Positions 2-17,188 of a stretch of 17,499 nt of DNA are shown here, one piece after another. The translations under genes and the position numbers were made by a program. The stretch is taken from NCBI GenBank assembly GCA_043822925.1, contig JBDRBF010000035.1, positions 1-17,499 of the forward strand, written 5' to 3'. The DNA comes from a bacterium (GTDB lineage: Bacteria; Babelota; Babeliae; Babelales; RVW-14). The stretch's first letter is position 1; the number at the start of each line of letters is the position of its first letter. The notes under the pieces were generated by a model. It had not been told where the DNA came from, made no database searches, and saw only the letters and a program-made list of their open reading frames with translations.

Positions 2-187
2 ACAGATGCAGAGCTATCTAAATATTTTGAAGACTTTACTAAAAAAAAGGATGACTTTTTTAAAACAGATGAAGAAATTCTTGCCGAGCGCGTGTCATCA
101 CTCCAGCAAGCACTCGAGTGTTTAAAAGAAAAACTTATTAAATTAAGTCACGAATTTAAAAACGTTCAGGAAAAAATTCACGAGTAG
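2..187 (+). CDS. 3' end of a hypothetical protein (starts upstream of the window) ending in a heptad/coiled-coil C-terminal motif
   Basis: Read by hand (not in the ORF track): frame 2 is open from base 2 to TAG at 185-187, giving TDAELSKYFEDFTKKKDDFFKTDEEILAERVSSLQQALECLKEKLIKLSHEFKNVQEKIHE*. Its C-terminus aligns without gaps to the C-terminus of the USP at 7580-7690. Confidence 0.75.
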   Translation, partial: TDAELSKYFEDFTKKKDDFFKTDEEILAERVSSLQQALECLKEKLIKLSHEFKNVQEKIHE

Positions 188-249: not shown

Positions 250-270
250 GGGGCACACGGCGTGTGCCCC
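250..270. terminator. GC-rich hairpin (intrinsic terminator or REP-like palindrome)
   Basis: GGGGCACAC-ggc-GTGTGCCCC, a perfect 9-bp stem. The A-run on its left gives a U-tract on the minus strand. It lies between the first gene and the yhcG-like gene. Confidence 0.5.
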
Positions 271-2125: not shown

Positions 2126-5100
2126 ATGAATATTAAATTATTAGCGCTCGTACTAAGCCTGCTTGGCAATATACCAAGCACCTATTGTATATTAGAGCTT
2201 ATTCAGCCCTCACAACAACCGCAACAACAACAGCAACAAGACATACTCTTTGCATCAGTAAGCAAACAAAGAGACAATCAATTCACACTACTACAACAAG
2301 AGTTGGAACAGTTTAAAAAAACAGCCCAATCAACAGTGATAAGTCTCAAAACCGAAAGTGAAAAGCTTTCCAAAGAACTTACTCAAGCAATAAAAACAAA
2401 AACAGAAACTCCCGCAAGAAACAAAAGAAAAATCGAATATTTAGATAAAAAAATAACGTTTCTAACAGAACAAAAACAAATTTTACTCACTATAGAAAAT
2501 ACATATAAAAGCATAGAAGAAACTCGCGAAAACCGTATTAAAATCGTTAAAGAAATAATAGATTTATTACTCGAAAAACAAACAAAACAGCTCAAAGAAA
2601 CGTACACCTGGCAAGAACTACTGGCTGAACAAGAAAAAGTAGCTGAAATAACAGGAAAAATAGTATTAACAAAGCACAAAAAAGATCTCGTACAAAAAAA
2701 CAAAACGTCAGAACAAGAAACTATCTCATCACTAAAAAAACAAACTGATATCAAAATTACAGAACGAGATAAAGCTCTTGCCGACCTCAAAGAACAATTA
2801 AAAAAATCAATAGACGAAGATCAAAGTCTCGCTGAAAGAATAGGGTATACAGAAAACATATTTAACAACGAAATCGCAAATCTTAAGAAAAAAGAAGAAC
2901 TCACGCATATTAAAATAGAAAAACTAGAACAAGAATCAAAGCTAAAAATTGACGAAATTGACCTATTTGAAAATCAACTAACACAAGAAAAAAATATTTT
3001 AACAGGCATCGAAAAACGATTACTCGTAACAAAAAAAGATGCTGAAAACGCTGAACAGGAAGCGAATAACGAAAATCAAAATGCATTAAAAATAAAAAAT
3101 GCACTTAATGCAAAAACAACTGAGTTACGCGCTAATAAATCAAAGCTTGATATTAAAATAGATCAACTCAACAAATACATTAAAAACCTAAAAGACGCGG
3201 GCAGACAAGAATCCGTCCAGACTCATCAAGCAAAAGCAGAACTCAAAAACATTGAATCACTCTATTTTGCCTTTGACCGTGAAATTAGCATGCTCAACAC
3301 ACAAGCAGATTTACTAGATGCTCAGGTAAAAGAGAAAAAATTATGGGCTGAACGTATAGACCTACATAGAAGACTTGCATCAAAAAAAGAGGATTTTGGG
3401 CCCCTGCTATCCAAATTCACGAGCAAAAGAGATGAAGATGCATCTATCTTAAAGAAGTTGCTAGACAAAAGACAGCAATCAACCGACGTGTCACTCGAAA
3501 TTGATAAAAAAAGCGCTCTTATAGAAAAAGATAAAACATACATACAAAACAAAAAAGACACGCTTTACAGAACCGACGAAGAAATATTTAACACAACCAT
3601 ACAGAATCTAGAAAAAGCAAAAAAACATCTTGAAAGCCAAAGAAAACTCTTTAGCCAAGAAAACATTGATACATCAAATTTAATCGAACGCCAAGAAAAA
3701 ATAATTAAACAATACGATGTAATTATCGAGATTATTGAAGCCAGAAAAACCGAACAGAATATTTGGGAACGCTCACCAAAAGCAATATCGCTCCCTGCAT
3801 TCAAAAAATCATTACTCGAAGCAGAACAGTTTTACAAAAAACTCTTCTGGGATACACCTGCGCACCTGGCCCCCTCTGTCATATTTGCTTCTCTCAAAAA
3901 CATATTATGGGCAGACTTTTTTGCGCTTATATTCTTCATAATATTCTTTTTATGCCTATTTTTTAGCACACGTAAAATTTTGGAAATAATACTTAAAAAA
4001 ATACAAAAAAACTTATCGACAGGTCGACAGCACATCAGCTCATTATCACTTAATACGGGCGTCACGATTGTCAAATTCGCACTCGAGCACTTATTTGTAA
4101 TCTCTCTCTGGACTTTCTTATATTTACACATAGTTTTTGACTTTGGATATATCTTTTTCTCTCTAAGATTTTTTGCAAAACCGTACTACATTACATTGTT
4201 TTATTTACTTACTATTCCTACAATGCTCTACTTATCACGCCAGTTATTGCTCATGCTTAAAGAGCTCAATAAACAACTCAGTTTCTTATTGTTTGCAGAA
4301 AAACTACAGGACAGATTCTTATTGCTTATATCGTCTTTTTGCTATTCGACAGCTATATTAATCCCGCTCAAGCTCGCTTTTTTAGCATACTTCCCAATGG
4401 AGCCAACAACTTTGCCAAACGTTATAAAAGCAGCCTACTCACTTATTCTTGTTGTTATTTTATTACTCTTTTTTAGCAAAGAAGACGTGCTCCGTATTAT
4501 CCCTTCCAGTTTTAAATTTTTAATTTTTATAAAGAAAAAAATAGACCAACACTACTATCCAGTATTTATATTTTTAATGGGCCTGCTTATTCTCGCTAAT
4601 CCATATATCGGGTATTTAAATTTATCCTGGTATCTGGCTTTTGCCGTTCCATCGACAGTGTTTTTTATTTATGCTCTATTTTTTACGCATAACTATATAA
4701 GAAAACAATCAATCTTCTTATTCGTCAAAGAAGAAGATGACGATATCGTAGATAAGTTTGAATATGCAAAAACCTATTATGGCATACTTGTTATTGTTAG
4801 CTTTATAGCACTCTCTCTTATTACATTCATACTTATTTCATATATCTGGGGCTATGAATATACCCTCACAGAAATCTGGAAAGCTTTTTCTGACCGTTGG
4901 GTACTCCCAATCACACCCGAATACAAACTTGGCCTTGTACAACTCTTATCTTTTATTATGTTTATTGTCTCCGGTATATTTATCTCCTCAATTATTCATA
5001 AGTTTATTTTAAAAAAATTATTTGAAATTTTACGCACTGAACCTGGCGCCCAAAACACGTACTCAAAAATGCTGCACTATACAATCATCTCGCTCGTAAC

Positions 5101-5758
5101 GCTCTTAGGCCTTATGTACATACATCTTGAAACACTCTTCTGGTACATTGGTACGTTCTTGGGCGTTGCAGTCGGTTTGGCCATCAAAGACATCGCTTCA
5201 GACTTTATCGCAGGGCTCTTTGTCTTAATCGAACGCCCAATAGAAATCGGCAATCTAATTACCCTAAACAACGAAGCCCATACACAAGGCGTCGTCCAAA
5301 AAATTAATGCTCGCACAACTATTGTCTCAAACAGATTTAAGCATTCTATTGTTATCCCAAACAAAGATATCGTTTCAAAAACTATATGCAATTGGGGAAA
5401 AGGACGCTTTGCTGTCGGATTTGAAGTAGAAATACGCGTTGACTATAACTCTGATATAGATCTAGTAAAAAAAACAATTCAAGAAGTTATTCAAACAAAT
5501 GCCGCTATATTGCGCATCCCTAAAGTTATTATTCGACTAGAAAACTTTGAAGAATCAGCTCTTTATTTTATGGTCCGCGCATTTATTAGCACCCGTCGCG
5601 TTAATGACCAATGGGATATCGCAGCGGAACTTCGTGAGCAAATGTTTAAATCGTTTAAGGCAAAAAATATTGAATTCGCTTTCCCACAAAATGTTGTTAC
5701 TATGCGCCCGAACAATAAAACACAAAGTCCAATAGCTGTTAAATTTGATAACGAGTAA
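2126..5758 (+). CDS. Large mechanosensitive channel, MscS family (MscK-like architecture)
   Basis: Signal peptide, poly-Q, ~500 aa coiled-coil region, about 11 hydrophobic segments, then the MscS core (GVAVGLAIKDIASDFIAGLFVLIERPIEIGNLI, GVVQKINARTT, IVIPNK, FEESALYF, IEFAFPQ). SD-like AAGGGG upstream. Confidence 0.92.
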   Translation: MNIKLLALVLSLLGNIPSTYCILELIQPSQQPQQQQQQDILFASVSKQRDNQFTLLQQELEQFKKTAQSTVISLKTESEKLSKELTQAIKTKTETPARNKRKIEYLDKKITFLTEQKQILLTIENTYKSIEETRENRIKIVKEIIDLLLEKQTKQLKETYTWQELLAEQEKVAEITGKIVLTKHKKDLVQKNKTSEQETISSLKKQTDIKITERDKALADLKEQLKKSIDEDQSLAERIGYTENIFNNEIANLKKKEELTHIKIEKLEQESKLKIDEIDLFENQLTQEKNILTGIEKRLLVTKKDAENAEQEANNENQNALKIKNALNAKTTELRANKSKLDIKIDQLNKYIKNLKDAGRQESVQTHQAKAELKNIESLYFAFDREISMLNTQADLLDAQVKEKKLWAERIDLHRRLASKKEDFGPLLSKFTSKRDEDASILKKLLDKRQQSTDVSLEIDKKSALIEKDKTYIQNKKDTLYRTDEEIFNTTIQNLEKAKKHLESQRKLFSQENIDTSNLIERQEKIIKQYDVIIEIIEARKTEQNIWERSPKAISLPAFKKSLLEAEQFYKKLFWDTPAHLAPSVIFASLKNILWADFFALIFFIIFFLCLFFSTRKILEIILKKIQKNLSTGRQHISSLSLNTGVTIVKFALEHLFVISLWTFLYLHIVFDFGYIFFSLRFFAKPYYITLFYLLTIPTMLYLSRQLLLMLKELNKQLSFLLFAEKLQDRFLLLISSFCYSTAILIPLKLAFLAYFPMEPTTLPNVIKAAYSLILVVILLLFFSKEDVLRIIPSSFKFLIFIKKKIDQHYYPVFIFLMGLLILANPYIGYLNLSWYLAFAVPSTVFFIYALFFTHNYIRKQSIFLFVKEEDDDIVDKFEYAKTYYGILVIVSFIALSLITFILISYIWGYEYTLTEIWKAFSDRWVLPITPEYKLGLVQLLSFIMFIVSGIFISSIIHKFILKKLFEILRTEPGAQNTYSKMLHYTIISLVTLLGLMYIHLETLFWYIGTFLGVAVGLAIKDIASDFIAGLFVLIERPIEIGNLITLNNEAHTQGVVQKINARTTIVSNRFKHSIVIPNKDIVSKTICNWGKGRFAVGFEVEIRVDYNSDIDLVKKTIQEVIQTNAAILRIPKVIIRLENFEESALYFMVRAFISTRRVNDQWDIAAELREQMFKSFKAKNIEFAFPQNVVTMRPNNKTQSPIAVKFDNE

Positions 5759-5815: not shown

Positions 5816-7690
5816 ATGAAGATCACGCGATTATCACGTCTTTTTTTCTGTCTTTTTCTTTTATTCACCACCCAAGTCTCTGCACAAAAGCCCCCAGCCT
5901 CACCAAATGCTGGTTGCTCTAACGAAAACGGAAACGACTGCTTCTTAAATGCAACCATGCAAGCACTTTTTCACACAAAGCCTCTTCGTAATTTTTTACG
6001 AAAAAACACACTCAATGATTACAAATAATCTGTCGCTATAAAAATAAAAAATCGACTTGATAATGAAATGGCAAATAACATCAAAACAGGATCGAAAGCA
6101 TTTCGAAAGACGATTACCTCTCACGCTGATGCACCTGAAAATATAAAAGATATGGCCAACGAACAACAAGATGCGAGTGAATTCTTAGCGTCCCTTTTAA
6201 TCATAATCAAAATAAAAAGGCAATATCGCCTTAAAATGGAAGATGAAATAAATTTATTTTTCACCCAAAACTTTAATTCTGGATCTCAAAATTATACTAA
6301 TGCACAAAAACTTTTCGAGTCAATATGGCGCGATTTCGAAACGACAGAAAGCGCTAAAATTCACAATGAAAAAACAATAAAAGAATGGTTCACAAAAAGC
6401 ATCGAAAAAAAAGAATTGGAGAGTATTATATACGAGCTCGAGAAACAACTATCCTCTATAATACTATCTGGATTGCCACAAACTAAAAAGTTTACAAACT
6501 TCTTAGAACAAAGAATAAAAAAGGGACAAGAAATAAACCTAGACAGAGGAAAATTTGAAAAAGCAAAAAAACTCTTAGATGACAAAATCATAGGCCCTAA
6601 AGACCTTATTAATTTAATCAATAAAACCATCGCTACCAAATTACTCGGAAAGAAACTCGATGAAAAAGAAAAAGAAGCAGGTCATTTTTTTAAAGTTTTT
6701 TTTAATAAATACGACGAAGATATAATAGACGAAATAGTACGCAGCTGGATGCAACTAAAAGAAGAAGATCCTATTACCAATAACGATTATTACACGTTAT
6801 TTAATGATTTGTGCAAATTTAAAAAAACAGGACTTAAATTCATAAATCTTACAGGACAAATTTATAAAAATTTTATAAAAAACATACAAAATAAAGACTG
6901 GAAAAGTTTTATTGAAACAAAAAATAAAGACCAAAAACATCAAGCCGCGTTCTCAGATATTTTTGAAATAAAAACAAAAGAAACAGTCTCATGTGAAAAA
7001 AACCACCTCAAAAAATCTGAAGCTCAAGACTACATACTAAAATTACCAATAGTAGATCCATTAGTAGATCCATTAACGCGCATCACATACACAACGCTCG
7101 ATGAATGTCTTCAAAAATACACAGAAAAAGAAGAACTAACTCAAGACAACCTCTGGAACTGCGAAGCCTGTAAAAACCTAGGGGAAAAAAATACAAAATC
7201 ATTCAAACAAATAATATTTCAAAAATTACCACCAATACTCATTATTAACCTCAAGCGCTTTTTATCTGGGGGGTTAGACGAAAAAATTACTGACCCAATT
7301 ACTTTTCCTGTTAATAATCTTGATATGTCTAAATATCTAAACGGACAAAATGCCACCTATAATCTTTATGCTATCGTCATACACTCAGGTGGAACCGGTG
7401 GCGGCCATTATTACACATATGCAAAATGGGATGGACATTGGTGGAAATATGACGACAGCAATGTAACACCAGCCGATGATCAAATCGAAACTATAGCAGA
7501 ACAAACGACTGAAGACGGCGGGCCATATATTCTCTTTTACGAACGCGCCGACATACAAAACGAACCATACGAAAAAAAAGACCCAATAACTAATAAAATC
7601 AATCAGTTAAAAAATACGCTTGAAATATATAAGAAGTCTTTAATAAAACTAGCTGATGCAATGCAAGAGATAAAAAAGAAAATTGGGTAA
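5816..7690 (+). pseudogene. Eukaryote-like ubiquitin-specific protease (peptidase C19/USP) with signal peptide, interrupted by one in-frame TAA at 6026-6028
   Basis: ORFs 5816-6028 and 6068-7690 share a frame, and the gap reads SVAIKIKNRLDNE with no further stop. Cys box GCSNENGNDCFLNATMQAL, QQDASEFL, Zn-ribbon CEKNH/WNCEAC, LPPILIINLKRF, His box YNLYAIVIHSGGTGGGHYYTY, WWKYDDSNV, PYILFYER. AGGAG SD before 5816. Confidence 0.88.
7050..7075 (+). repeat. 12-bp in-frame tandem duplication (VDPL VDPL)
   Basis: TAGTAGATCCAT repeated twice, followed by TA. Confidence 0.85.
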
Positions 7691-9336: not shown

Positions 9337-10311
9337 ATGAAAAACAAAAATATAAAATTCCTAAAAAATAGCATGTACGATCCTAAGCGCGACGCAATAA
9401 ATAAGCGTGAGTTACGTAATTTAGAAGATGAAGAGCATGACCTGCCAAGAAAGAAAAAATCTCTCGGGCAGCACTTCTTACGCAAACAATCAGTCGTCGA
9501 CAACATGATCTCGAGCGTTACCATCACCCCTGAAACTTCAGTCATGGAAATCGGCTGTGGTGACGGCTTCTTAACACAGGCAATACTTAATCAAACACGC
9601 TGCAAACAATTAACATGCTTCGAAATTGACCCTGAATGGGTCGAGTTTGTAAAAAACAAAATTAAAGACCCACGCCTTACGATTGTGCTAGAAAACATCT
9701 TAACAGTAAGTCTTGAGCCTCTCTATAAAACTAAACCATTAGTACTGCTGGCTAACCTGCCATACCAAATAACGTTCCCCATCATGTTCATGCTCCAAAA
9801 AGATAAAGCCCTCTTTCAAGAAGGCGTCGTTATGGTTCAGGAAGAAGTAGCGCAAAAAATAGTTTCTTCACGGGGAAAAACATATGGTCCAACAAGCATG
9901 TTTTTACAATATCATTTTACGTTTAAGCTACTTGAGAAAATAGAACCAGGCTCGTTCAGCCCACCGCCAAAAGTACATTCTCGTTTGATTCACTTTAAAC
10001 CAAAACTCGAAGTTACACCTATCAAAGACGAAGAGAACTTTTGGAAATTCTTAAAAACATGCTTTCAATTTCCACGCAGAACGCTCAGGAATAATATCAA
10101 AGCAACAAACTTTCTTCATCATGAATCTCTTACAGAAACGTTACTTGACCTAAGAGCTCAACAGCTTTCTTTTGAGCAATTTCTAGTCGTCTGGGATAAA
10201 ATATCTCCGGACTTAAAAACTGCTGTGCCCGGCCAAGCCTCGTGCAAAGCCTGGGAATCAAATTCAGACGACACAAAAACTTCACTCGATATGCTTAAGT
10301 TAACAAAATAA
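9337..10311 (+). CDS. rsmA: 16S rRNA adenine dimethyltransferase RsmA/KsgA
   Basis: KKSLGQHFL, EIGCGDGFLT, FEIDP, ANLPYQIT, MVQEEVAQKI, FSPPPKVHS, FQFPRRTLRNN, RAQQLS. The start may be 9373. About 35 extra C-terminal residues. Confidence 0.96.
   Translation: MKNKNIKFLKNSMYDPKRDAINKRELRNLEDEEHDLPRKKKSLGQHFLRKQSVVDNMISSVTITPETSVMEIGCGDGFLTQAILNQTRCKQLTCFEIDPEWVEFVKNKIKDPRLTIVLENILTVSLEPLYKTKPLVLLANLPYQITFPIMFMLQKDKALFQEGVVMVQEEVAQKIVSSRGKTYGPTSMFLQYHFTFKLLEKIEPGSFSPPPKVHSRLIHFKPKLEVTPIKDEENFWKFLKTCFQFPRRTLRNNIKATNFLHHESLTETLLDLRAQQLSFEQFLVVWDKISPDLKTAVPGQASCKAWESNSDDTKTSLDMLKLTK
10223..10255 (-). repeat. GC-rich palindromic repeat-like segment in the rsmA C-terminal extension
   Basis: Minus strand CCCAGGCTTTGCACGAGGCTTGGCCGGGCACAG, similar in layout to the inner element in recO (2040-2072). 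Confidence 0.45.
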
Positions 10312-10331: not shown

Positions 10332-12014
10332 ATGAAAAAGACAAAACGTTTTTCACATACGTTTACATGTACTCTTATACATACTTTTTTGACCATATTT
10401 ATAACGTTCTCGTCGCACTTATTTAGTGCAACACCAGAAGAAACGCGAAATAATACACTCGATATAAACATAAACGCTTTGACAGGACATACAACTCAAG
10501 AAACAGCTCAAAAAGCTCAAGAACCCAAAAAAAGCTGGAGCGAAATTTGCGAACAAAAAAAAGACGCTGTCGTACAAATTTTTGCATATGGTTGCCAGTA
10601 CAATCTATTTGAACCATTCAAAATGCCTGAAAATTTTAGCTCAACAGGAACCGGTTTTTTCATCAATAACGACGGCGACATACTCACTGCTTACCATGTT
10701 GTCGCGCAGTCAGTATCTCTAGAAATACAAATACCATCTCTAGGTAAAGAACGATTCCCCGTTATTTTTATTGGCGGATGCCCGCACAAAGATGTCGCTA
10801 AATTACGTTTAGCAGACGAAGTTTTAGCCCTCATAAAACAAAAATTTAACACACAAGAACTCAAATATTTAGAACTAGGCGACTCAGACACCCTACTAGA
10901 AGCTCAAAAAATAATGGCCCTCGGTTTTCCTCTGGGAGATGAAGAAATCAAGATTTCTGTAGGCGATGTTTCTGGCAGAAAAACAACCACATTAGGGGAA
11001 AGCATCCAAACAACAGCCCCTATAAATCCAGGCAACTCAGGTGGCCCGTGCCTCAACAAACAAGGCAAAGTTATCGGCATCTGCAGTTCTAAGAAAGTAG
11101 GAGAAGAAATAGAAGGCGTCGCATATCTTATACCTATAAAAAATATATTCCCCATCATGGATCAACTATGCAATAAAGCACTTATCAAAAAACCATATTG
11201 GGGGCTAGAAATACTCCCAACAACCGCTGACACGCTTGAATTCTTAGGCAATCCAATTGACGGCGGGATATACATAAAAAAAGTCGAAAAGGGCTCTTTA
11301 GCTGAAGAATATAAAATAAAAAAAAGCGACGTTTTATACAAAATAAACGACAAGCAAATAGACAAATATGGAGACATTGACTCCCCATGGGGCACCGGAA
11401 AAGTAAACGCGCATGACTATCTGGCCCGTCTTCCGCTTGGAAGCGTAGTAACATATACACTCTACAGACAAGGTAAAAAAATAGAAATCTCAGGAGAAAT
11501 AAAAAACCCCGATCAATACAAAATAAAACACATATACCCATGGATTGATGCCCCACTTGAATATGAAATTATCGGCGGCATGGTTATTGTAGAACTAACA
11601 TTAAACCACATAGATATACTAAAGAATACACCCTACAATTTCTCACTCATTAAAAAATATGCTGACGATGAAAATCGCCTCAAACCTCGTCTCATGATCT
11701 CTACTATATATCCCTCATCACCATTTCATAATACCCGCTGCTTTAGAGATGGAGATTGGATCATAAAAAAAGTTAACGGCATCAAAGTTTATACGATACA
11801 AGAATTCCGGCAGGCTGTACTGGATGGGGCCACAAATAAATCACTCACGGTTGAAACTACTGGAGGCTCATTTGCCGCCGTCAAAATAAGCGATATTATT
11901 AGCAAAGAAGACGAATTATCACACATATATTTTTATCCAAAATCTGAACTTGTCTCACAGTTAGCAGAAAGAAGCACTAAAGATACAAAAGAACTCGAAA
12001 ACATGCCTATTTAA
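10332..12014 (+). CDS. Trypsin-like serine protease with PDZ domains (HtrA/Deg family), paralogue 1, with signal peptide
   Basis: GTGFFI, LTAYHVV (His), KDVAKL (Asp), INPGNSGGP (Ser), a PDZ region and a YEIIGGMV second PDZ-like domain. GGAGG SD. Confidence 0.93.
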   Translation: MKKTKRFSHTFTCTLIHTFLTIFITFSSHLFSATPEETRNNTLDININALTGHTTQETAQKAQEPKKSWSEICEQKKDAVVQIFAYGCQYNLFEPFKMPENFSSTGTGFFINNDGDILTAYHVVAQSVSLEIQIPSLGKERFPVIFIGGCPHKDVAKLRLADEVLALIKQKFNTQELKYLELGDSDTLLEAQKIMALGFPLGDEEIKISVGDVSGRKTTTLGESIQTTAPINPGNSGGPCLNKQGKVIGICSSKKVGEEIEGVAYLIPIKNIFPIMDQLCNKALIKKPYWGLEILPTTADTLEFLGNPIDGGIYIKKVEKGSLAEEYKIKKSDVLYKINDKQIDKYGDIDSPWGTGKVNAHDYLARLPLGSVVTYTLYRQGKKIEISGEIKNPDQYKIKHIYPWIDAPLEYEIIGGMVIVELTLNHIDILKNTPYNFSLIKKYADDENRLKPRLMISTIYPSSPFHNTRCFRDGDWIIKKVNGIKVYTIQEFRQAVLDGATNKSLTVETTGGSFAAVKISDIISKEDELSHIYFYPKSELVSQLAERSTKDTKELENMPI

Positions 12015-12206: not shown

Positions 12207-13160
12207 TTAATAAGCCATCGGCACCCCCATTGATCTAATCTGTTGAACTGTAAATTTGCTATTACACACCATCGAAAATGAATCGAATTTTATAGCCACT
12301 TCAAACGTTGCGTAATAAATTTCATCAGGCCTTTTGTAGTCGAGCGACTGATAAAACCGTTCTCGATTATAAAAGTTGATGTAATCTTTCACAATCAATC
12401 GTACTTCTGCAATGTTTTCAAGGGCATGGAATCGCAATGCTTCATATTTAATGCTTCGCCAAAACCGCTCAATGATGATGTTGTCAGCCCATCGACCTTT
12501 GCCATCCATACTGATTTTTATGCCTTCTTTTTCTAAGCGACCAACCCACATTTCACTGGTAAATTGGCAACCCTGATCGCTGTTAAAAATTTCAGGATTT
12601 CCATGCATTAAGGCCACCTCTAACGCTACGATGCATGCTTCAGAATCAAGGTATGGCGATAGCGCCCAACCCATAATCTTTCGACTAAAAACATCGATGA
12701 TGCAAACCAAATAAACCCAGCCCCCACGTATTCTTATGTATGTGATATCGGTTTTCCATACCTGATTTGGGTGATCAATTACCAAATTTTTTAAAAGATA
12801 TGGAAACACTTTGTGCTCCTTATTTGGAATGCTCGTTTTTTTATAAGGAGCAACAGCACTAAGCCCTGTTAATGTCATAAGACGCTGTGTTTTCTTGATG
12901 TTATGCTTAAAGTTTTTTTCAAGAAGTGCTTCATGAATTTTACGATATCCGTAAAACGGATGACGTTCATATTCCCCTCGAATTTCATTCATGATTATCA
13001 CGTCTTTGTTATCGCTTTGTTTGAGTTTGTAATATAAGCCGCTACGATTGACATCAAGCAATTTGCATCGCTTAGAAAGACTCAATTTACTTTCGTGCTC
13101 AATCCATTGCTTACGCACCTGGATATCTAGCGACTGAGCACACGTTCTAAAAAATTGCAT
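12207..13160 (-). CDS. IS3-family transposase OrfB (DDE integrase core)
   Basis: HPFYGYRKI, PNQVWKTDITYI (D), IFNSDQGCQFTS (D), SMDGKGRWADNIIIERFWRSIKYE (E). In the -1 frame relative to orfA. Confidence 0.95.
   Translation of the reverse strand: MQFFRTCAQSLDIQVRKQWIEHESKLSLSKRCKLLDVNRSGLYYKLKQSDNKDVIIMNEIRGEYERHPFYGYRKIHEALLEKNFKHNIKKTQRLMTLTGLSAVAPYKKTSIPNKEHKVFPYLLKNLVIDHPNQVWKTDITYIRIRGGWVYLVCIIDVFSRKIMGWALSPYLDSEACIVALEVALMHGNPEIFNSDQGCQFTSEMWVGRLEKEGIKISMDGKGRWADNIIIERFWRSIKYEALRFHALENIAEVRLIVKDYINFYNRERFYQSLDYKRPDEIYYATFEVAIKFDSFSMVCNSKFTVQQIRSMGVPMAY
13095..13154 (-). promoter_or_regulatory. Programmed -1 frameshift signal fusing OrfA and OrfB
   Basis: Slippery T_TTT_TTA (13154-13148) in the orfA frame, followed after 6 nt by a 10-bp stem GTGCTCAGTC/GATTGAGCAC enclosing TGC-GTAA-GCA. 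SD-like AAGGGA upstream. Confidence 0.7.
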
Positions 13161-13405
13161 TCTTCCCTTACTTGTTCAAGCTCTGCAAGTAGCTTTTCGT
13201 AGGTTGGTTCTTTTTTTATCTTTCTTTTGTCTAAAAAAATTTCATAACCGTGTTCTTCAAGTTGCTGTTTCCATGCATACGCTTGGCTTGGTGAAATATT
13301 AAATTCGTGACATAAATCATCTACCGATTTATTACCTTTTATCATAGCCAAAGCTATTTTTGCCTTAAATTTATCATCATGATTTTTTTTCACACCATCA
13401 TTCAT
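13127..13405 (-). CDS. IS3-family OrfA (HTH), overlapping OrfB
   Basis: HDDKFKAKIALAMIKGNKSVDDLCHEFNISPSQAYAWKQQL plus a C-terminal zipper-like helix. Confidence 0.92.
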   Translation of the reverse strand: MNDGVKKNHDDKFKAKIALAMIKGNKSVDDLCHEFNISPSQAYAWKQQLEEHGYEIFLDKRKIKKEPTYEKLLAELEQVREECNFLERVLSR

Positions 13406-13494
13406 GAGAACGCCTTTCGAACAAAACCTTTTGTTAGATTCAACTTCCTCATGTTAATTTAAGCTTGTCATTGTTGTCCACGGTTTATCCTTAT

Positions 13495-13770
13495 TTAAAG
13501 CGATCGCAATAAGGAATCACGTTCTACAACAAGCCTGCCAATGATTGCATGAAATTTTTCAGCATCAGGGCTTTTCTTTGTTGCACTCTTACCATTTGAA
13601 AAAGCTTCAACGCCTCGTTCTTCAAGCTGCTTTTTCCATGCGTAGATTTGGCTTGAGGCAAGGGCAAACTCTTGGCATAATTCAGCCACTGGCTTATCAG
13701 CTTTTATAGCTGCCAACGCAACTTTTAACTTAAACTTATCTCTGTGAATTTTGTTTGTTTTGTCATTCAT
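13495..13770 (-). CDS. Second IS3-family OrfA-like HTH protein
   Basis: HRDKFKLKVALAAIKADKPVAELCQEFALASSQIYAWKKQL...IGRLVVERDSL. 34/57 identical to the other OrfA over the N-terminus (hand count). Confidence 0.9.
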   Translation of the reverse strand: MNDKTNKIHRDKFKLKVALAAIKADKPVAELCQEFALASSQIYAWKKQLEERGVEAFSNGKSATKKSPDAEKFHAIIGRLVVERDSLLRSL

Positions 13771-13994
13771 ATCAATGCCCCCCAGGCGTATTTTTATAGT
13801 TCATGTTTTTTGATGTCTAAATTCTCAAGTTACCCTGTCTAGTTTTATGGGGTCAGTATAAACATTGAATTTTCATGCTCTTTTATGTTTTTATAAAACA
13901 ATAAATGCGCTATTTTAATAATTCACGCACAAAGTACGCATAAAACATATTGGAAGCAATTCAAACAGAGAGACCTAAAAACAGAAAGATAACT

Positions 13995-15743
13995 ATGAAA
14001 AATTTAATGGAAAAAAAACTGCAATATATATTTAATATAGTATGTATAATTTTATTATTATTCAGTCCATCAAATATAAACAGCAAAGCTTATCCGCAAC
14101 TAAATCCCATAGAAACAGACTCCCAAGATGCACAAGATTTTGATGCTCAAGATTTTGATATTGCCGAAGATGATGACAATGATATTACGACATATATCCC
14201 AAACTGGGCAAAAGTACAAAAACGAGCAAAAGACACCGTCGTCCAAGTTTTTTCTCAAGTTTCAGAATTCAATTGGGAGCAACCGTACAAAACACCTGAT
14301 CAAAGCAGCGCATGCGGCACTGGTTTTTTTATCTATAATCAGGGCCACTTATTAACAAATTTTCACGTCATAGATGAAGCAGTAAGTATAAAAATCCAAA
14401 TACCAACACTCGGAAAAGAACGCTTTACAACAAAAGTTATTGGCGTCTGCCCAGAAAGAGATTTAGCATTACTCAAACTCACTGATATCTCTCGCACACA
14501 AATTATCAATAAACTTGGTAAAATTTCACACTTAAACCTAGGAAACTCTGACATCATACGCAGAACAAACCAGATACTTGCTCTCGGATACCCGCTCAGC
14601 CAAGAAAAACTCAAAAGCACTCAAGGCATAGTGAGCGGCAGAGAAAATATAGATAACGAGTCATATATTCAAATTACAGCTGCAATAAATAAAGGCAATT
14701 CAGGGGGCCCGTCACTCAATTCCAAAGGCGAGGTGATCGGCATCAATACTTGTGGCGTCTCAAAAGCTCAAAGTGTCGGCTATATTATTCCGATTAACGA
14801 CATCAAAAATGTTATTAAAGATTTGCACAAAGTACGCTTACTCAGGAAACCATCATTTGGTTGCATCATAAATAAAGGCACCAAAGAACTCGTTAAATTT
14901 CTCAATAATCCTGAACCAGGTGGACTCTATGTCTCACACGTATTCAAGAATACGTTACTTGAAAAAGCAGGCATCCAAGCAGGCGATATGATCTATTCCA
15001 TCAATAGTCGAGTATTTGATTTATATGGTGAAACACAAGTAAGCTGGGCTGAAGATAAAGTTCCTGCAACAGCCCTGGTCAATCGTCTTAAATTAGGCGA
15101 AAAAATTGGCATTGATTTTTATCGCAACGGAGAAAGAAAAATAACTTCTTTCAACTTTGATCTTCAACCAGAACTACCAATACGAACGATCTATCCAGAA
15201 TACGAAAAAGTTGATTACGAGATTATTGGCGGCCTAGTTATCATGGAACTATCACTCAATCATATTGACATATTTCAGAACAAAAACCCCATGTTAATTA
15301 AATACACTAAACGCGAACATCAATATAAATCACGGCTTATTATCACCCATATTTTACCCAATTCGCAAGCACAACAAGCACGCGTTATCTCAAAAGCTGC
15401 CATAATAAAAAAAATTAACGGCATTCCAGTTAATACACTTGCTGACCTGAGAGCCGCTGTAATCACAAACAAAGAATTCTTAAGCATCGCAACAGAAAAC
15501 AAAGAATTCATGGTTCTTTCTATGAAAAAAATTATAAAACAAGAAGACGCGCTAACTAAACGTTATTTTTATAAAAAATCTGAAATTTTCAAAGCATTTG
15601 AACCTGAACCAGAAATACTAGAAACACCAATAATACCTGAAACTCAGGTAACACCAGAACCTCCAGTGCCACCAACAAATCAAACGCCAATTATGCAAAT
15701 AATGCAAGAAGCTCAAGAACAGGAAGTCCAAGAACCAAATTAA
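13995..15743 (+). CDS. Trypsin-like serine protease with PDZ domains (HtrA/Deg family), paralogue 2
   Basis: LTNFHVI, RDLALL, INKGNSGGP, YEIIGGLV. Hydrophobic N-terminal signal/anchor, acidic linker with DAQDF twice, Pro/Glu-rich tail. Start uncertain (13950 TTG, 13995 or 14007 ATG). Confidence 0.93.
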   Translation: MKNLMEKKLQYIFNIVCIILLLFSPSNINSKAYPQLNPIETDSQDAQDFDAQDFDIAEDDDNDITTYIPNWAKVQKRAKDTVVQVFSQVSEFNWEQPYKTPDQSSACGTGFFIYNQGHLLTNFHVIDEAVSIKIQIPTLGKERFTTKVIGVCPERDLALLKLTDISRTQIINKLGKISHLNLGNSDIIRRTNQILALGYPLSQEKLKSTQGIVSGRENIDNESYIQITAAINKGNSGGPSLNSKGEVIGINTCGVSKAQSVGYIIPINDIKNVIKDLHKVRLLRKPSFGCIINKGTKELVKFLNNPEPGGLYVSHVFKNTLLEKAGIQAGDMIYSINSRVFDLYGETQVSWAEDKVPATALVNRLKLGEKIGIDFYRNGERKITSFNFDLQPELPIRTIYPEYEKVDYEIIGGLVIMELSLNHIDIFQNKNPMLIKYTKREHQYKSRLIITHILPNSQAQQARVISKAAIIKKINGIPVNTLADLRAAVITNKEFLSIATENKEFMVLSMKKIIKQEDALTKRYFYKKSEIFKAFEPEPEILETPIIPETQVTPEPPVPPTNQTPIMQIMQEAQEQEVQEPN

Positions 15744-15778: not shown

Positions 15779-17188
15779 ATGAGTAATGGACACGGGTCAC
15801 AAGCAAGCGTCGTACAAATTATCGTCCAAGCAACTTTATTTAATTGGATAGAACCATACAAATCTCCCGATCAACAACAAGCTTACGGCACCGGTTTTTT
15901 TATTGACGACAAAGGCTACTTAATAACAAACTATCATGTTATAGCCGGAGCAGCGAGCATCCAGCTACAAATCCCAACACTTGGTAAAGAGCGCTTCAAT
16001 GCAACAATAGCCGGCGCATGCCCAAAAAGAGATATAGCTTTATTAAAACTTACAGAAGAAGCATACAAAAACGTAACCAGTAAACTTGGTGGCATAAAAT
16101 ATCTCACACTCGGCGACTCAGATAAAATAATTCGCACACAAGAAATTTTAACACTTGGGTACCCACTCGGACAAGATGCTTTAAAAAGTACCCAAGGCAT
16201 CGTCAGTGGCCGACAAGATATTATGGGGGAATCTTTTATCCAAATAACTGCAGCATTAAACCCTGGCAATTCTGGCGGGCCATCGCTTGACGATACAGGC
16301 AACGTAATTGGCATAAACTCTGCCATAATACCGGATGCTCAAAACATTGGGTATATTATCCCGATCAGCGACGTCAAAAGTATTATTAACGATTTATTTC
16401 GCGTCACACTATTACGCAAGCCGATGCTCGGTTGCGACTTAAATTATGGTACCAAAGACATGCTCACGTTTTTAAATAACCCTGAACCTGGAGGCCTGTA
16501 TATCTCCTGCGTATACAAAAACATGCTTTTCGATAAAGCAGGCATACAAGAAGGCGACATGTGGTATCAAGTCAACGGATATGACATAGATATGTACGGA
16601 GAAATAAACGTTGACTGGAGCGAAGATAAAGTGCCTCTTTCAGCGCTTGTTAATAGATTCCAAATTGGTGAAAAAATAAATATTATTATCTATCGTAACG
16701 GCCAAAAAAAAGAACTAAACTTCTCGTTCGATCTACTAACCCCACTTCCTGTACGCATCATATTCCCTGAATTTGAAACGATAGACTACGAAGTTATCGG
16801 GGGCTTAGTTGTAATGGAACTCTCACTAAATCATGCAACATATTTTGAAGAAGTTAATCCGTTCTTAATAAACTACAGAAAACGCGATTCACAATTTGAA
16901 CCATGCTTAATTATTACGAACGTACTTCCAAATTCACAGGTATATAATGCCCGCACTATATTCCCGGGCAATATTTTAGCAGAAGTTAACAATACACCGG
17001 TCAAAACACTCGCAGATTTTAGACAAGCAGCTAAAAAAGATAAAAACTTTTTGTGCATGAAAACATCGAATAAAAAGTTTGTTGTACTGAACCTCAAAAA
17101 AGTATTACAAGATGAAGACTTTTTGACCAAAGAACATGTGTATAAAAAAACAAAACTCATCCAAGAACTCATCGATCTCACAAAATAA
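15779..17188 (+). CDS. Trypsin-like serine protease with PDZ domains (HtrA/Deg family), paralogue 3, no signal peptide
   Basis: ITNYHVI, RDIALL, LNPGNSGGP, YEVIGGLV. AGGGAG SD before the ATG. Confidence 0.93.
   Translation: MSNGHGSQASVVQIIVQATLFNWIEPYKSPDQQQAYGTGFFIDDKGYLITNYHVIAGAASIQLQIPTLGKERFNATIAGACPKRDIALLKLTEEAYKNVTSKLGGIKYLTLGDSDKIIRTQEILTLGYPLGQDALKSTQGIVSGRQDIMGESFIQITAALNPGNSGGPSLDDTGNVIGINSAIIPDAQNIGYIIPISDVKSIINDLFRVTLLRKPMLGCDLNYGTKDMLTFLNNPEPGGLYISCVYKNMLFDKAGIQEGDMWYQVNGYDIDMYGEINVDWSEDKVPLSALVNRFQIGEKINIIIYRNGQKKELNFSFDLLTPLPVRIIFPEFETIDYEVIGGLVVMELSLNHATYFEEVNPFLINYRKRDSQFEPCLIITNVLPNSQVYNARTIFPGNILAEVNNTPVKTLADFRQAAKKDKNFLCMKTSNKKFVVLNLKKVLQDEDFLTKEHVYKKTKLIQELIDLTK

Follow-up and report, generated by a model that had tools for sequence, protein, structure and literature searches.

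The DNA analyzed here, referred to as the window, is a stretch of 17,499 nucleotides at the start of contig C35 in a 1.52-Mb assembly (86 contigs, 37% G+C). The closest named relatives of its rsmA gene belong to Candidatus Dependentiae/Babeliales, with 60–68% identity. The window opens within the 3' end of an orphan gene and further contains a gene for a USP-type deubiquitinase, and both gene products end in a copy of the same motif (Table 1). The overlap between contig C10, on which the rest of the orphan gene lies, and positions 1–141 of the window is exact. About 277 codons of the orphan gene remain. Its 5' end on C10 is truncated by an adjoining IS3-type element, and the full gene could not be recovered: past this element, the next frame on C10 is a different gene on the minus strand. 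The orphan protein had no Pfam match and no relative among 34 family genomes, in agreement with the initial annotation, which had treated the upstream gene as something other than a USP paralogue. In this protein, the motif is followed by two residues and the stop codon (positions 185–187). The AT-rich spacer 3' of the stop carries a GC-rich perfect palindrome with 9-base arms and a 3-base loop, which may be a terminator.

Table 1 Features of the window and of the adjoining contig C10
Feature	Position	Strand	Remark
IS3-family element, orfA + orfB	contig C10, about 2460-3730 (locus L072), upstream of window 1	-	
Orphan gene, 3' end	2..187	+	remainder on contig C10
Motif copy, columns 1-34, orphan gene C-end	77..178	+	E 2.7e-13
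Palindrome	250-270		
Protein with MscS channel domains	2126-5758		
USP N-terminal piece: Sec-type signal peptide + catalytic Cys box	5816..6028	+	ends in in-frame TAA 6026-6028
USP remainder, Pfam UCH domain	6029..7540	+	same frame as 5816-6028
Hydrophilic linker, USP fold to motif	7541..7582	+	low-confidence linker in orthologue's model
Motif copy, columns 1-34, USP C-end	7583..7684	+	E 1.2e-13
rsmA/ksgA frame	9337-10311		
HtrA/DegP-like protease gene	10332-12014		
Second IS3-type transposase, rve + HTH domains	12207-13770	-	
HtrA/DegP-like protease gene	13950-15743		
HtrA/DegP-like protease gene	15779-17188		

The USP gene ends similarly, with the motif, one further residue and the stop codon (7688–7690). 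Its UCH domain scored 122.3 bits against a cut-off of 23.9, and the Cys-box piece alone scored 37.5 bits. Because a single in-frame TAA separates the Cys box from the remainder, the gene as assembled is interrupted. The protein had been described as a signal-peptide-bearing USP; a Sec-type signal peptide is indeed present, but on the separate piece that the TAA splits off. In the single run (X3, from another groundwater study) of four with a contig over the site, one low-depth contig reads G at position 6026, which gives a sense codon, and the TAA is therefore either an error or specific to the strain. A look for RNA evidence returned no listed data set with the USP region. No such stop interrupts the orthologue P0003, which has 504 residues including the signal peptide and the Cys box. 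Outside the source genome, the layout of a USP with this tail was found in at least four other organisms (P0003, P0049/L045, L065, and the fragment P0061), and a related-locus search of genome contigs returned no USP relative. Secreted C19-family ubiquitin hydrolases with signal peptides have been reported from Babela massiliensis (PMC4378268). Like them, the window protein is a signal-peptide-bearing USP-type deubiquitinase from Dependentiae, whereas term searches of the parts of that paper that were accessible gave no shared tail motif for the Babela enzymes (PMC4378268).

As for the other genes in the window, the protein encoded between the orphan and USP genes has 1210 residues, with MscS channel domains only in the last 190; its long N-terminal part had no Pfam match. 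The rsmA/ksgA frame has a 5' end about 45 codons longer than its relatives, which are 60–70% identical over about 80% of the query, and its true start probably lies further downstream. The second IS3-type transposase is located between the first and second HtrA/DegP-like protease genes. An HtrA query against genome contigs retrieved one unrelated Bacillota locus only.

The resemblance between the two tails was the starting observation of the initial annotation. Aligned without gaps, at a one-residue offset from the stops, they share 10/35 identities, as against 2–3 at other offsets. When 1988 C-terminal tails of the genome were compared with the USP tail, seven had at least 10 identities to it, of which five proved to carry the motif themselves and the other two show no relation to it. 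The match of the two tails by itself is thus borderline. Nevertheless, an HMM built from these two sequences alone already retrieved further strong copies, and the iterated profile converged at 29 reading frames in the source genome, which correspond to 28 distinct copies because two pieces split over contig ends were merged. There were no profile matches in shuffled frames. Reversed frames matched only in known carriers (27/27), because the motif is nearly palindromic, and the best forward match outside the carriers had an E-value of 0.68. The similarity of the tails is therefore genuine, and the family behind it is larger than had been claimed.

We found no family for this motif in Pfam, NCBIfam, or PDB. 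The NCBIfam search and the PDB profile search (best E = 0.47) gave chance-level matches only, and a search of the ESM Atlas gave no usable match to the motif. Leucine-zipper-like coiled coils are a well-known kind of module; within these searches, no description emerged of one serving a parasite as a common end tag for its exported proteins. Neither full-text literature searches on the motif and Dependentiae nor term look-ups in PMC6561590, PMC4378268, and PMC4776705 turned up a description of it. The two tails are copies of an undescribed, lineage-specific, predicted helical module of about 34 residues.

The consensus of the motif is roughly DLxxQIxxLxxSLxxLKxKLVxLAxxLxxVKxKL, with a perfect 3-4 heptad pattern. 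Over 38 copies, the ten a/d columns are 89–100% hydrophobic, and the pattern extends over the four or more heptads expected of a coiled coil. Leu is invariant at columns 13 and 23 in the same copies. Column 17 is K/R in 100%, column 19 is K in 89%, and column 31 is K/R in 82%; columns 12 and 24 hold a small residue in 95%. Acidic residues account for at most 8% at the e/g columns and are mostly missing there altogether. A DNA repeat or cassette was considered as the source of the copies and rejected, given that their mean nucleotide identity is 46% and that all six Leu codons are used at the invariant Leu columns. In comparisons between genomes, identity was 44–84% over the motif and 20–39% over the remainder of the protein, in 6/6 alignable pairs (a seventh did not align). 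These comparisons show that selection acts on the peptide and not on the DNA, and that it is stronger than on the passenger.

The motif had been proposed to be strictly C-terminal, which did not hold. In the source genome, 10 copies are at the C-end, ending 0–3 residues before the stop, while 12 are at the predicted mature N-end, starting 6–12 residues past the hydrophobic core of the signal peptide. Two further N-end copies that fall outside this positional rule were recognized by eye (12–14 in total), so that the N-end is the commoner location, and four copies are internal. One internal copy, on contig C38, has an extra N-terminal domain followed by a unit of motif and Ulp1 domain; the same unit occurs on contig C29 immediately behind a signal peptide. 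The internal copy on C38 arose by fusion. The 28 copies read at the loci of relatives obey the same positional rule: a signal peptide precedes 8 of them, and another 10 are found no more than 8 residues from the stop. The remaining 10 are internal or unplaced, and some of these frames are cut by the ends of the stretch examined. Internal copies are more frequent in relatives, a point against the coiled-coil reading given below.

Between the motif and the remainder of the protein lies a linker rich in proline and charged residues. In the 20 residues flanking the motif on the passenger side, Pro makes up 9.0% (background 3.6%), charged residues 38% (background 23%), and hydrophobic residues 25% (background 37%). 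None of 2000 random sets reached the observed value for Pro, and none reached that for hydrophobic residues. In alignment A1, column 12 is Ser in 13/14 N-end copies of the source genome and Ala in 7/10 C-end and 3/4 internal copies, whereas it is Ser in the C-end copies of relatives. Within a genome, N-end and C-end copies therefore seem to proliferate each as a lineage of its own.

Proteins carrying the motif are otherwise diverse. After masking of the motif, the 29 frames fell into 23 groups without detectable mutual similarity, which bears out the suggestion of a modular tag outside the catalytic fold, carried by otherwise unrelated proteins. Together with the orphan protein, which had neither a Pfam match nor a relative in the family genomes, these unrelated groups also led us to reject simple paralogy of the two tails. 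The carriers comprise three ankyrin proteins (one with a phosphoesterase domain), one LRR protein, one Macro-domain protein, the USP, an IBR (RBR-ligase type) protein and its 39%-identical paralogue without a Pfam match, and a Ulp1-type peptidase and its 30%-identical relative, likewise without a Pfam match. The remaining carriers had no Pfam match at E up to 0.001, bar one sub-threshold match to DUF5921. Eukaryote-like domains (Ank, LRR, IBR, Ulp1, Macro, and USP) are thus enriched among the carriers, as had been anticipated, and so are signal peptides. According to a crude hydrophobic-core rule, a signal-peptide-like start was present in 23/25 carriers with a complete 5' end compared with 599/1072 background frames (Fisher p = 1.2e-4). 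A stricter ATG-start rule gave 17/29 carrier frames (the 5' end is incomplete in four of the 29) compared with 443/1072 background frames. Elsewhere in the source genome, a second USP on contig C31 and an ankyrin protein on contig C2 are without the motif.

The taxonomic range was determined with a profile (A2) to which ten copies from relatives had contributed. Of 261 genomes of the phylum, 13 contained the motif, all of one family. Within this family, 13/35 genomes including the source had 2–30 matches each, and presence was all-or-none per genus, with 7/19 genera positive. The 226 genomes of 20 other families of the phylum gave no match at E up to 1e-4, and five motif-free genomes of the family gave 1–2 chance-level matches each at E up to 1. 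Given the few matches in these motif-free relatives, the absence from the other families, and the zero matches in shuffled frames, we rejected generic coiled-coil noise as the origin of the family. A search of 1.84 billion representative proteins returned 44 matches at E up to 0.001, of which 24 are exact matches to the source genome's own proteins and three more have tails identical to its own. Their positions follow the same rule as in the source genome: eleven of the 44 lie within 3 residues of the C-end and four within 4–9 residues, 20 begin at residue 56 or earlier, five are internal, and four are fragments or doubtful partial matches.

A quick, single-gene tree of secretin was inferred for 31/35 genomes of the family; G005, G014, G018, and G049, in which the copy is fragmented or ambiguous, were left out. 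The motif-bearing genera did not form one clade in this tree. Five changes are needed to explain their distribution, and at least four of them are forced by well-supported branches. The tree speaks against a single origin in one clade and points to either several losses or transfer between lineages.

In the AlphaFold2 model of P0003, the USP core is confident and is followed by a linker of low confidence, after which residues 469–501 form a single helix (pLDDT 83–89). In a further prediction, three motif copies with alignment A2 came together as a parallel in-register trimer, whose core is made up of the a/d residues and whose rim carries the e/g residues. The median ipSAE was 0.71 compared with 0.01 for the best control, partner pLDDT was at least 84, and 100% of contacts were common to three runs. 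In calibration of the tool, the pass mark was reached by 20/30 proteins solved as one-chain pairs and 1/23 solved as single chains; this calibration fits the trimer only roughly, because it is based on two copies and on alignments of its own. The trimer model may be generic, in that any leucine-rich amphipathic helix tends toward such a bundle. As the controls were unrelated natural proteins and not other zippers, the pass shows zipper-like behavior and not specificity for this zipper.

The Pfam family with the largest number of weak matches among the copies is CLZ (PF16526): 12/38 copies match it at E up to 1, always at profile positions 29–63 and always below the curated gathering cut-off (best 21.3 bits, cut-off 26.7). 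CLZ, from CNG channel A subunits, has a solved structure in which three helices form a parallel zipper (Shuart et al. 2011, PMC3265371). Like the motif, it is a short zipper beyond the functional domains, and its three-helix coil sets the number of subunits (PMC3265371). Unlike the motif, CLZ is a cytoplasmic element of animal channels that occurs strictly at the C-terminus; it follows a cyclic-nucleotide-binding domain, whereas the motif is carried by USP, Ank, LRR, IBR, Ulp1, or Macro proteins or by orphans. The two are alike as zippers, from which shared ancestry does not follow.

Dockerin modules and SLH domains are small modules at either end of many secreted enzymes, which they gather on a common structure. 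By analogy, the motif may follow a comparable logic, as a small module that is joined by a Pro-rich linker to either end of unrelated secreted proteins, but it differs from both in fold and sequence and could instead self-assemble. No dockerin signature was among the Pfam matches of the carriers or the motif copies, and no scaffold protein was found. Other shared tags include the C-terminal domains of T9SS and further C-terminal sorting signals. These are folded domains found strictly at the C-terminus, or membrane anchors, and each has its dedicated machine. The T9SS signals resemble the motif as a shared end tag on functionally diverse Sec-exported proteins. The likeness to a T9SS-type domain drawn in the initial annotation is nevertheless not supported, since the motif is a single 34-residue helix in the model, is found more often at the mature N-end, and does not vary together with secretin number.

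We give about an even chance to the reading that the motif is a coiled-coil oligomerization or docking module tethered to exported, mostly host-directed proteins. A tethered, self-contained helix at a free end, under stronger selection than its passenger, fits a module for assembly or docking after Sec export. Mechanistically, each carrier would present a self-standing amphipathic helix whose core comprises ten a/d positions, held by a flexible Pro/charge-rich tether at the mature N-end or the extreme C-end and rarely between two domains. The motif helices would pack as a parallel coiled coil, probably a trimer, and after export the carriers would self-associate, co-assemble, or dock on a common partner. 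This could give repeat proteins a higher avidity and bring enzymes, the deubiquitinase among them, to a high local concentration. We infer in this way the helix bundle, its trimeric stoichiometry, the function in oligomerization or docking, and the site of action. Among the three roles initially suggested, namely anchoring, oligomerization, and export, it is oligomerization that the trimer model most favors. On the other hand, a plain homotrimer leaves the strict conservation of the e/g positions unexplained, and such conservation of rim residues suggests co-assembly of different carriers, a common bacterial hub, or a host partner. Two heptad scans of the source genome found no acidic counterpart helix. 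Were the partner a host protein or host coiled coil, the basic zipper would bind it and bring different enzymes to the same host structure, a possibility that we consider rather doubtful. The surface e/g residues are conserved beyond the need of a bundle core, the motif is the best-conserved part of the carriers, the carriers are eukaryote-directed enzymes and repeat proteins, and neither the heptad scans nor the secretin comparison revealed a bacterial partner, all of which would suit a host target. However, no eukaryotic motif or family matched (best PDB match at E = 0.47, all Pfam matches below cut-off), and the predicted trimer would already account for the e/g contacts.

A sorting or secretion tag, as the initial annotation had it, would make the helix a handle for a second-step exporter (e.g., a secretin-based type II-like system) or for a surface-anchoring factor acting after Sec. 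The motif is almost confined to signal-peptide proteins and prefers the free ends of the mature chain, and the carriers, which would have to act on host ubiquitin, SUMO, or ADP-ribose systems, must leave the cell to reach these targets. Furthermore, the genome encodes three secretins and three T2SS-E type ATPases, and type II secretion is given as the only or main secretion system found in Dependentiae in two papers (PMC4378268, PMC4776705). Nevertheless, we regard this explanation as unlikely. A signal active at the N-end, at the C-end, and internally would be unusual, and the second USP and at least one ankyrin protein of the source genome are untagged. The motif is also absent from 22/35 family genomes and from 226/226 genomes of other families, yet about three secretins are present in each of the 35 family genomes, the 22 without the motif included. 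With secretin number as the measure, the proposed co-distribution with a transporter was not observed, an extra secretin was rejected as the partner of the motif, and no lineage-specific transporter emerged. Binding of an amphipathic helix to a lipid surface, be it the outer membrane of the bacterium, vesicles derived from that membrane, or a membrane of the host, seems very improbable to us. The C-terminal two-thirds of the motif do have a mean net charge of +3.2, with Lys beside the hydrophobic face at the polar/non-polar boundary and extra hydrophobic residues at b/c positions 15 and 21, as a membrane helix might. The hydrophobic stripe, however, is narrow, with the strict 3-4 spacing of coiled coils; lipid binding has no need of the conserved Ser/Ala at columns 12 and 24 or of the invariant Leu, and the model packs the helices together with predicted high confidence.

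Dependentiae are obligate protist parasites, and to our knowledge no principle of effector delivery or effector organization is known in them. A tag on about 28 exported, largely host-directed proteins provides a list of candidate effectors in this clade, many of them orphans. Signal peptides are borne by a large share of Dependentiae proteins; in Chromulinavorax they occur on 44% of the coding sequences (PMC6561590). The motif peptide is small enough for direct tests of assembly, partners, and location, and it offers an example of a short module that has spread to both ends of unrelated genes under strong selection. The zipper might couple effectors in a cellulosome-like manner, through mixed trimers or a shared hub, or else be the first linear transferable handle for secretin-based export; we hold this bolder proposal to be a long shot. 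If effectors were coupled, the members of such assemblies would include, for example, the deubiquitinase, RBR-type ligase, SUMO protease, macro-domain protein, and ankyrin proteins, and a hub would be located either at the surface of the parasite or on an organelle of the host. If the motif were an export handle, it would be the first such handle in a phylum whose effector delivery is unexplained.

Carrier genes are also clustered, with three in a row on contig C63 and three on contig C29. In the complete genome G006, six profile matches fall within about 28 kb (C1, 1.024–1.052 Mb). One small carrier spans contigs C81 (6109–6368) and C33 (2–313), which are joined by a 141-base overlap. It consists of a lipoprotein-like leader with a Cys, the motif, and a very acidic tail, in this order, and is a candidate for an anchored partner of the other carriers.
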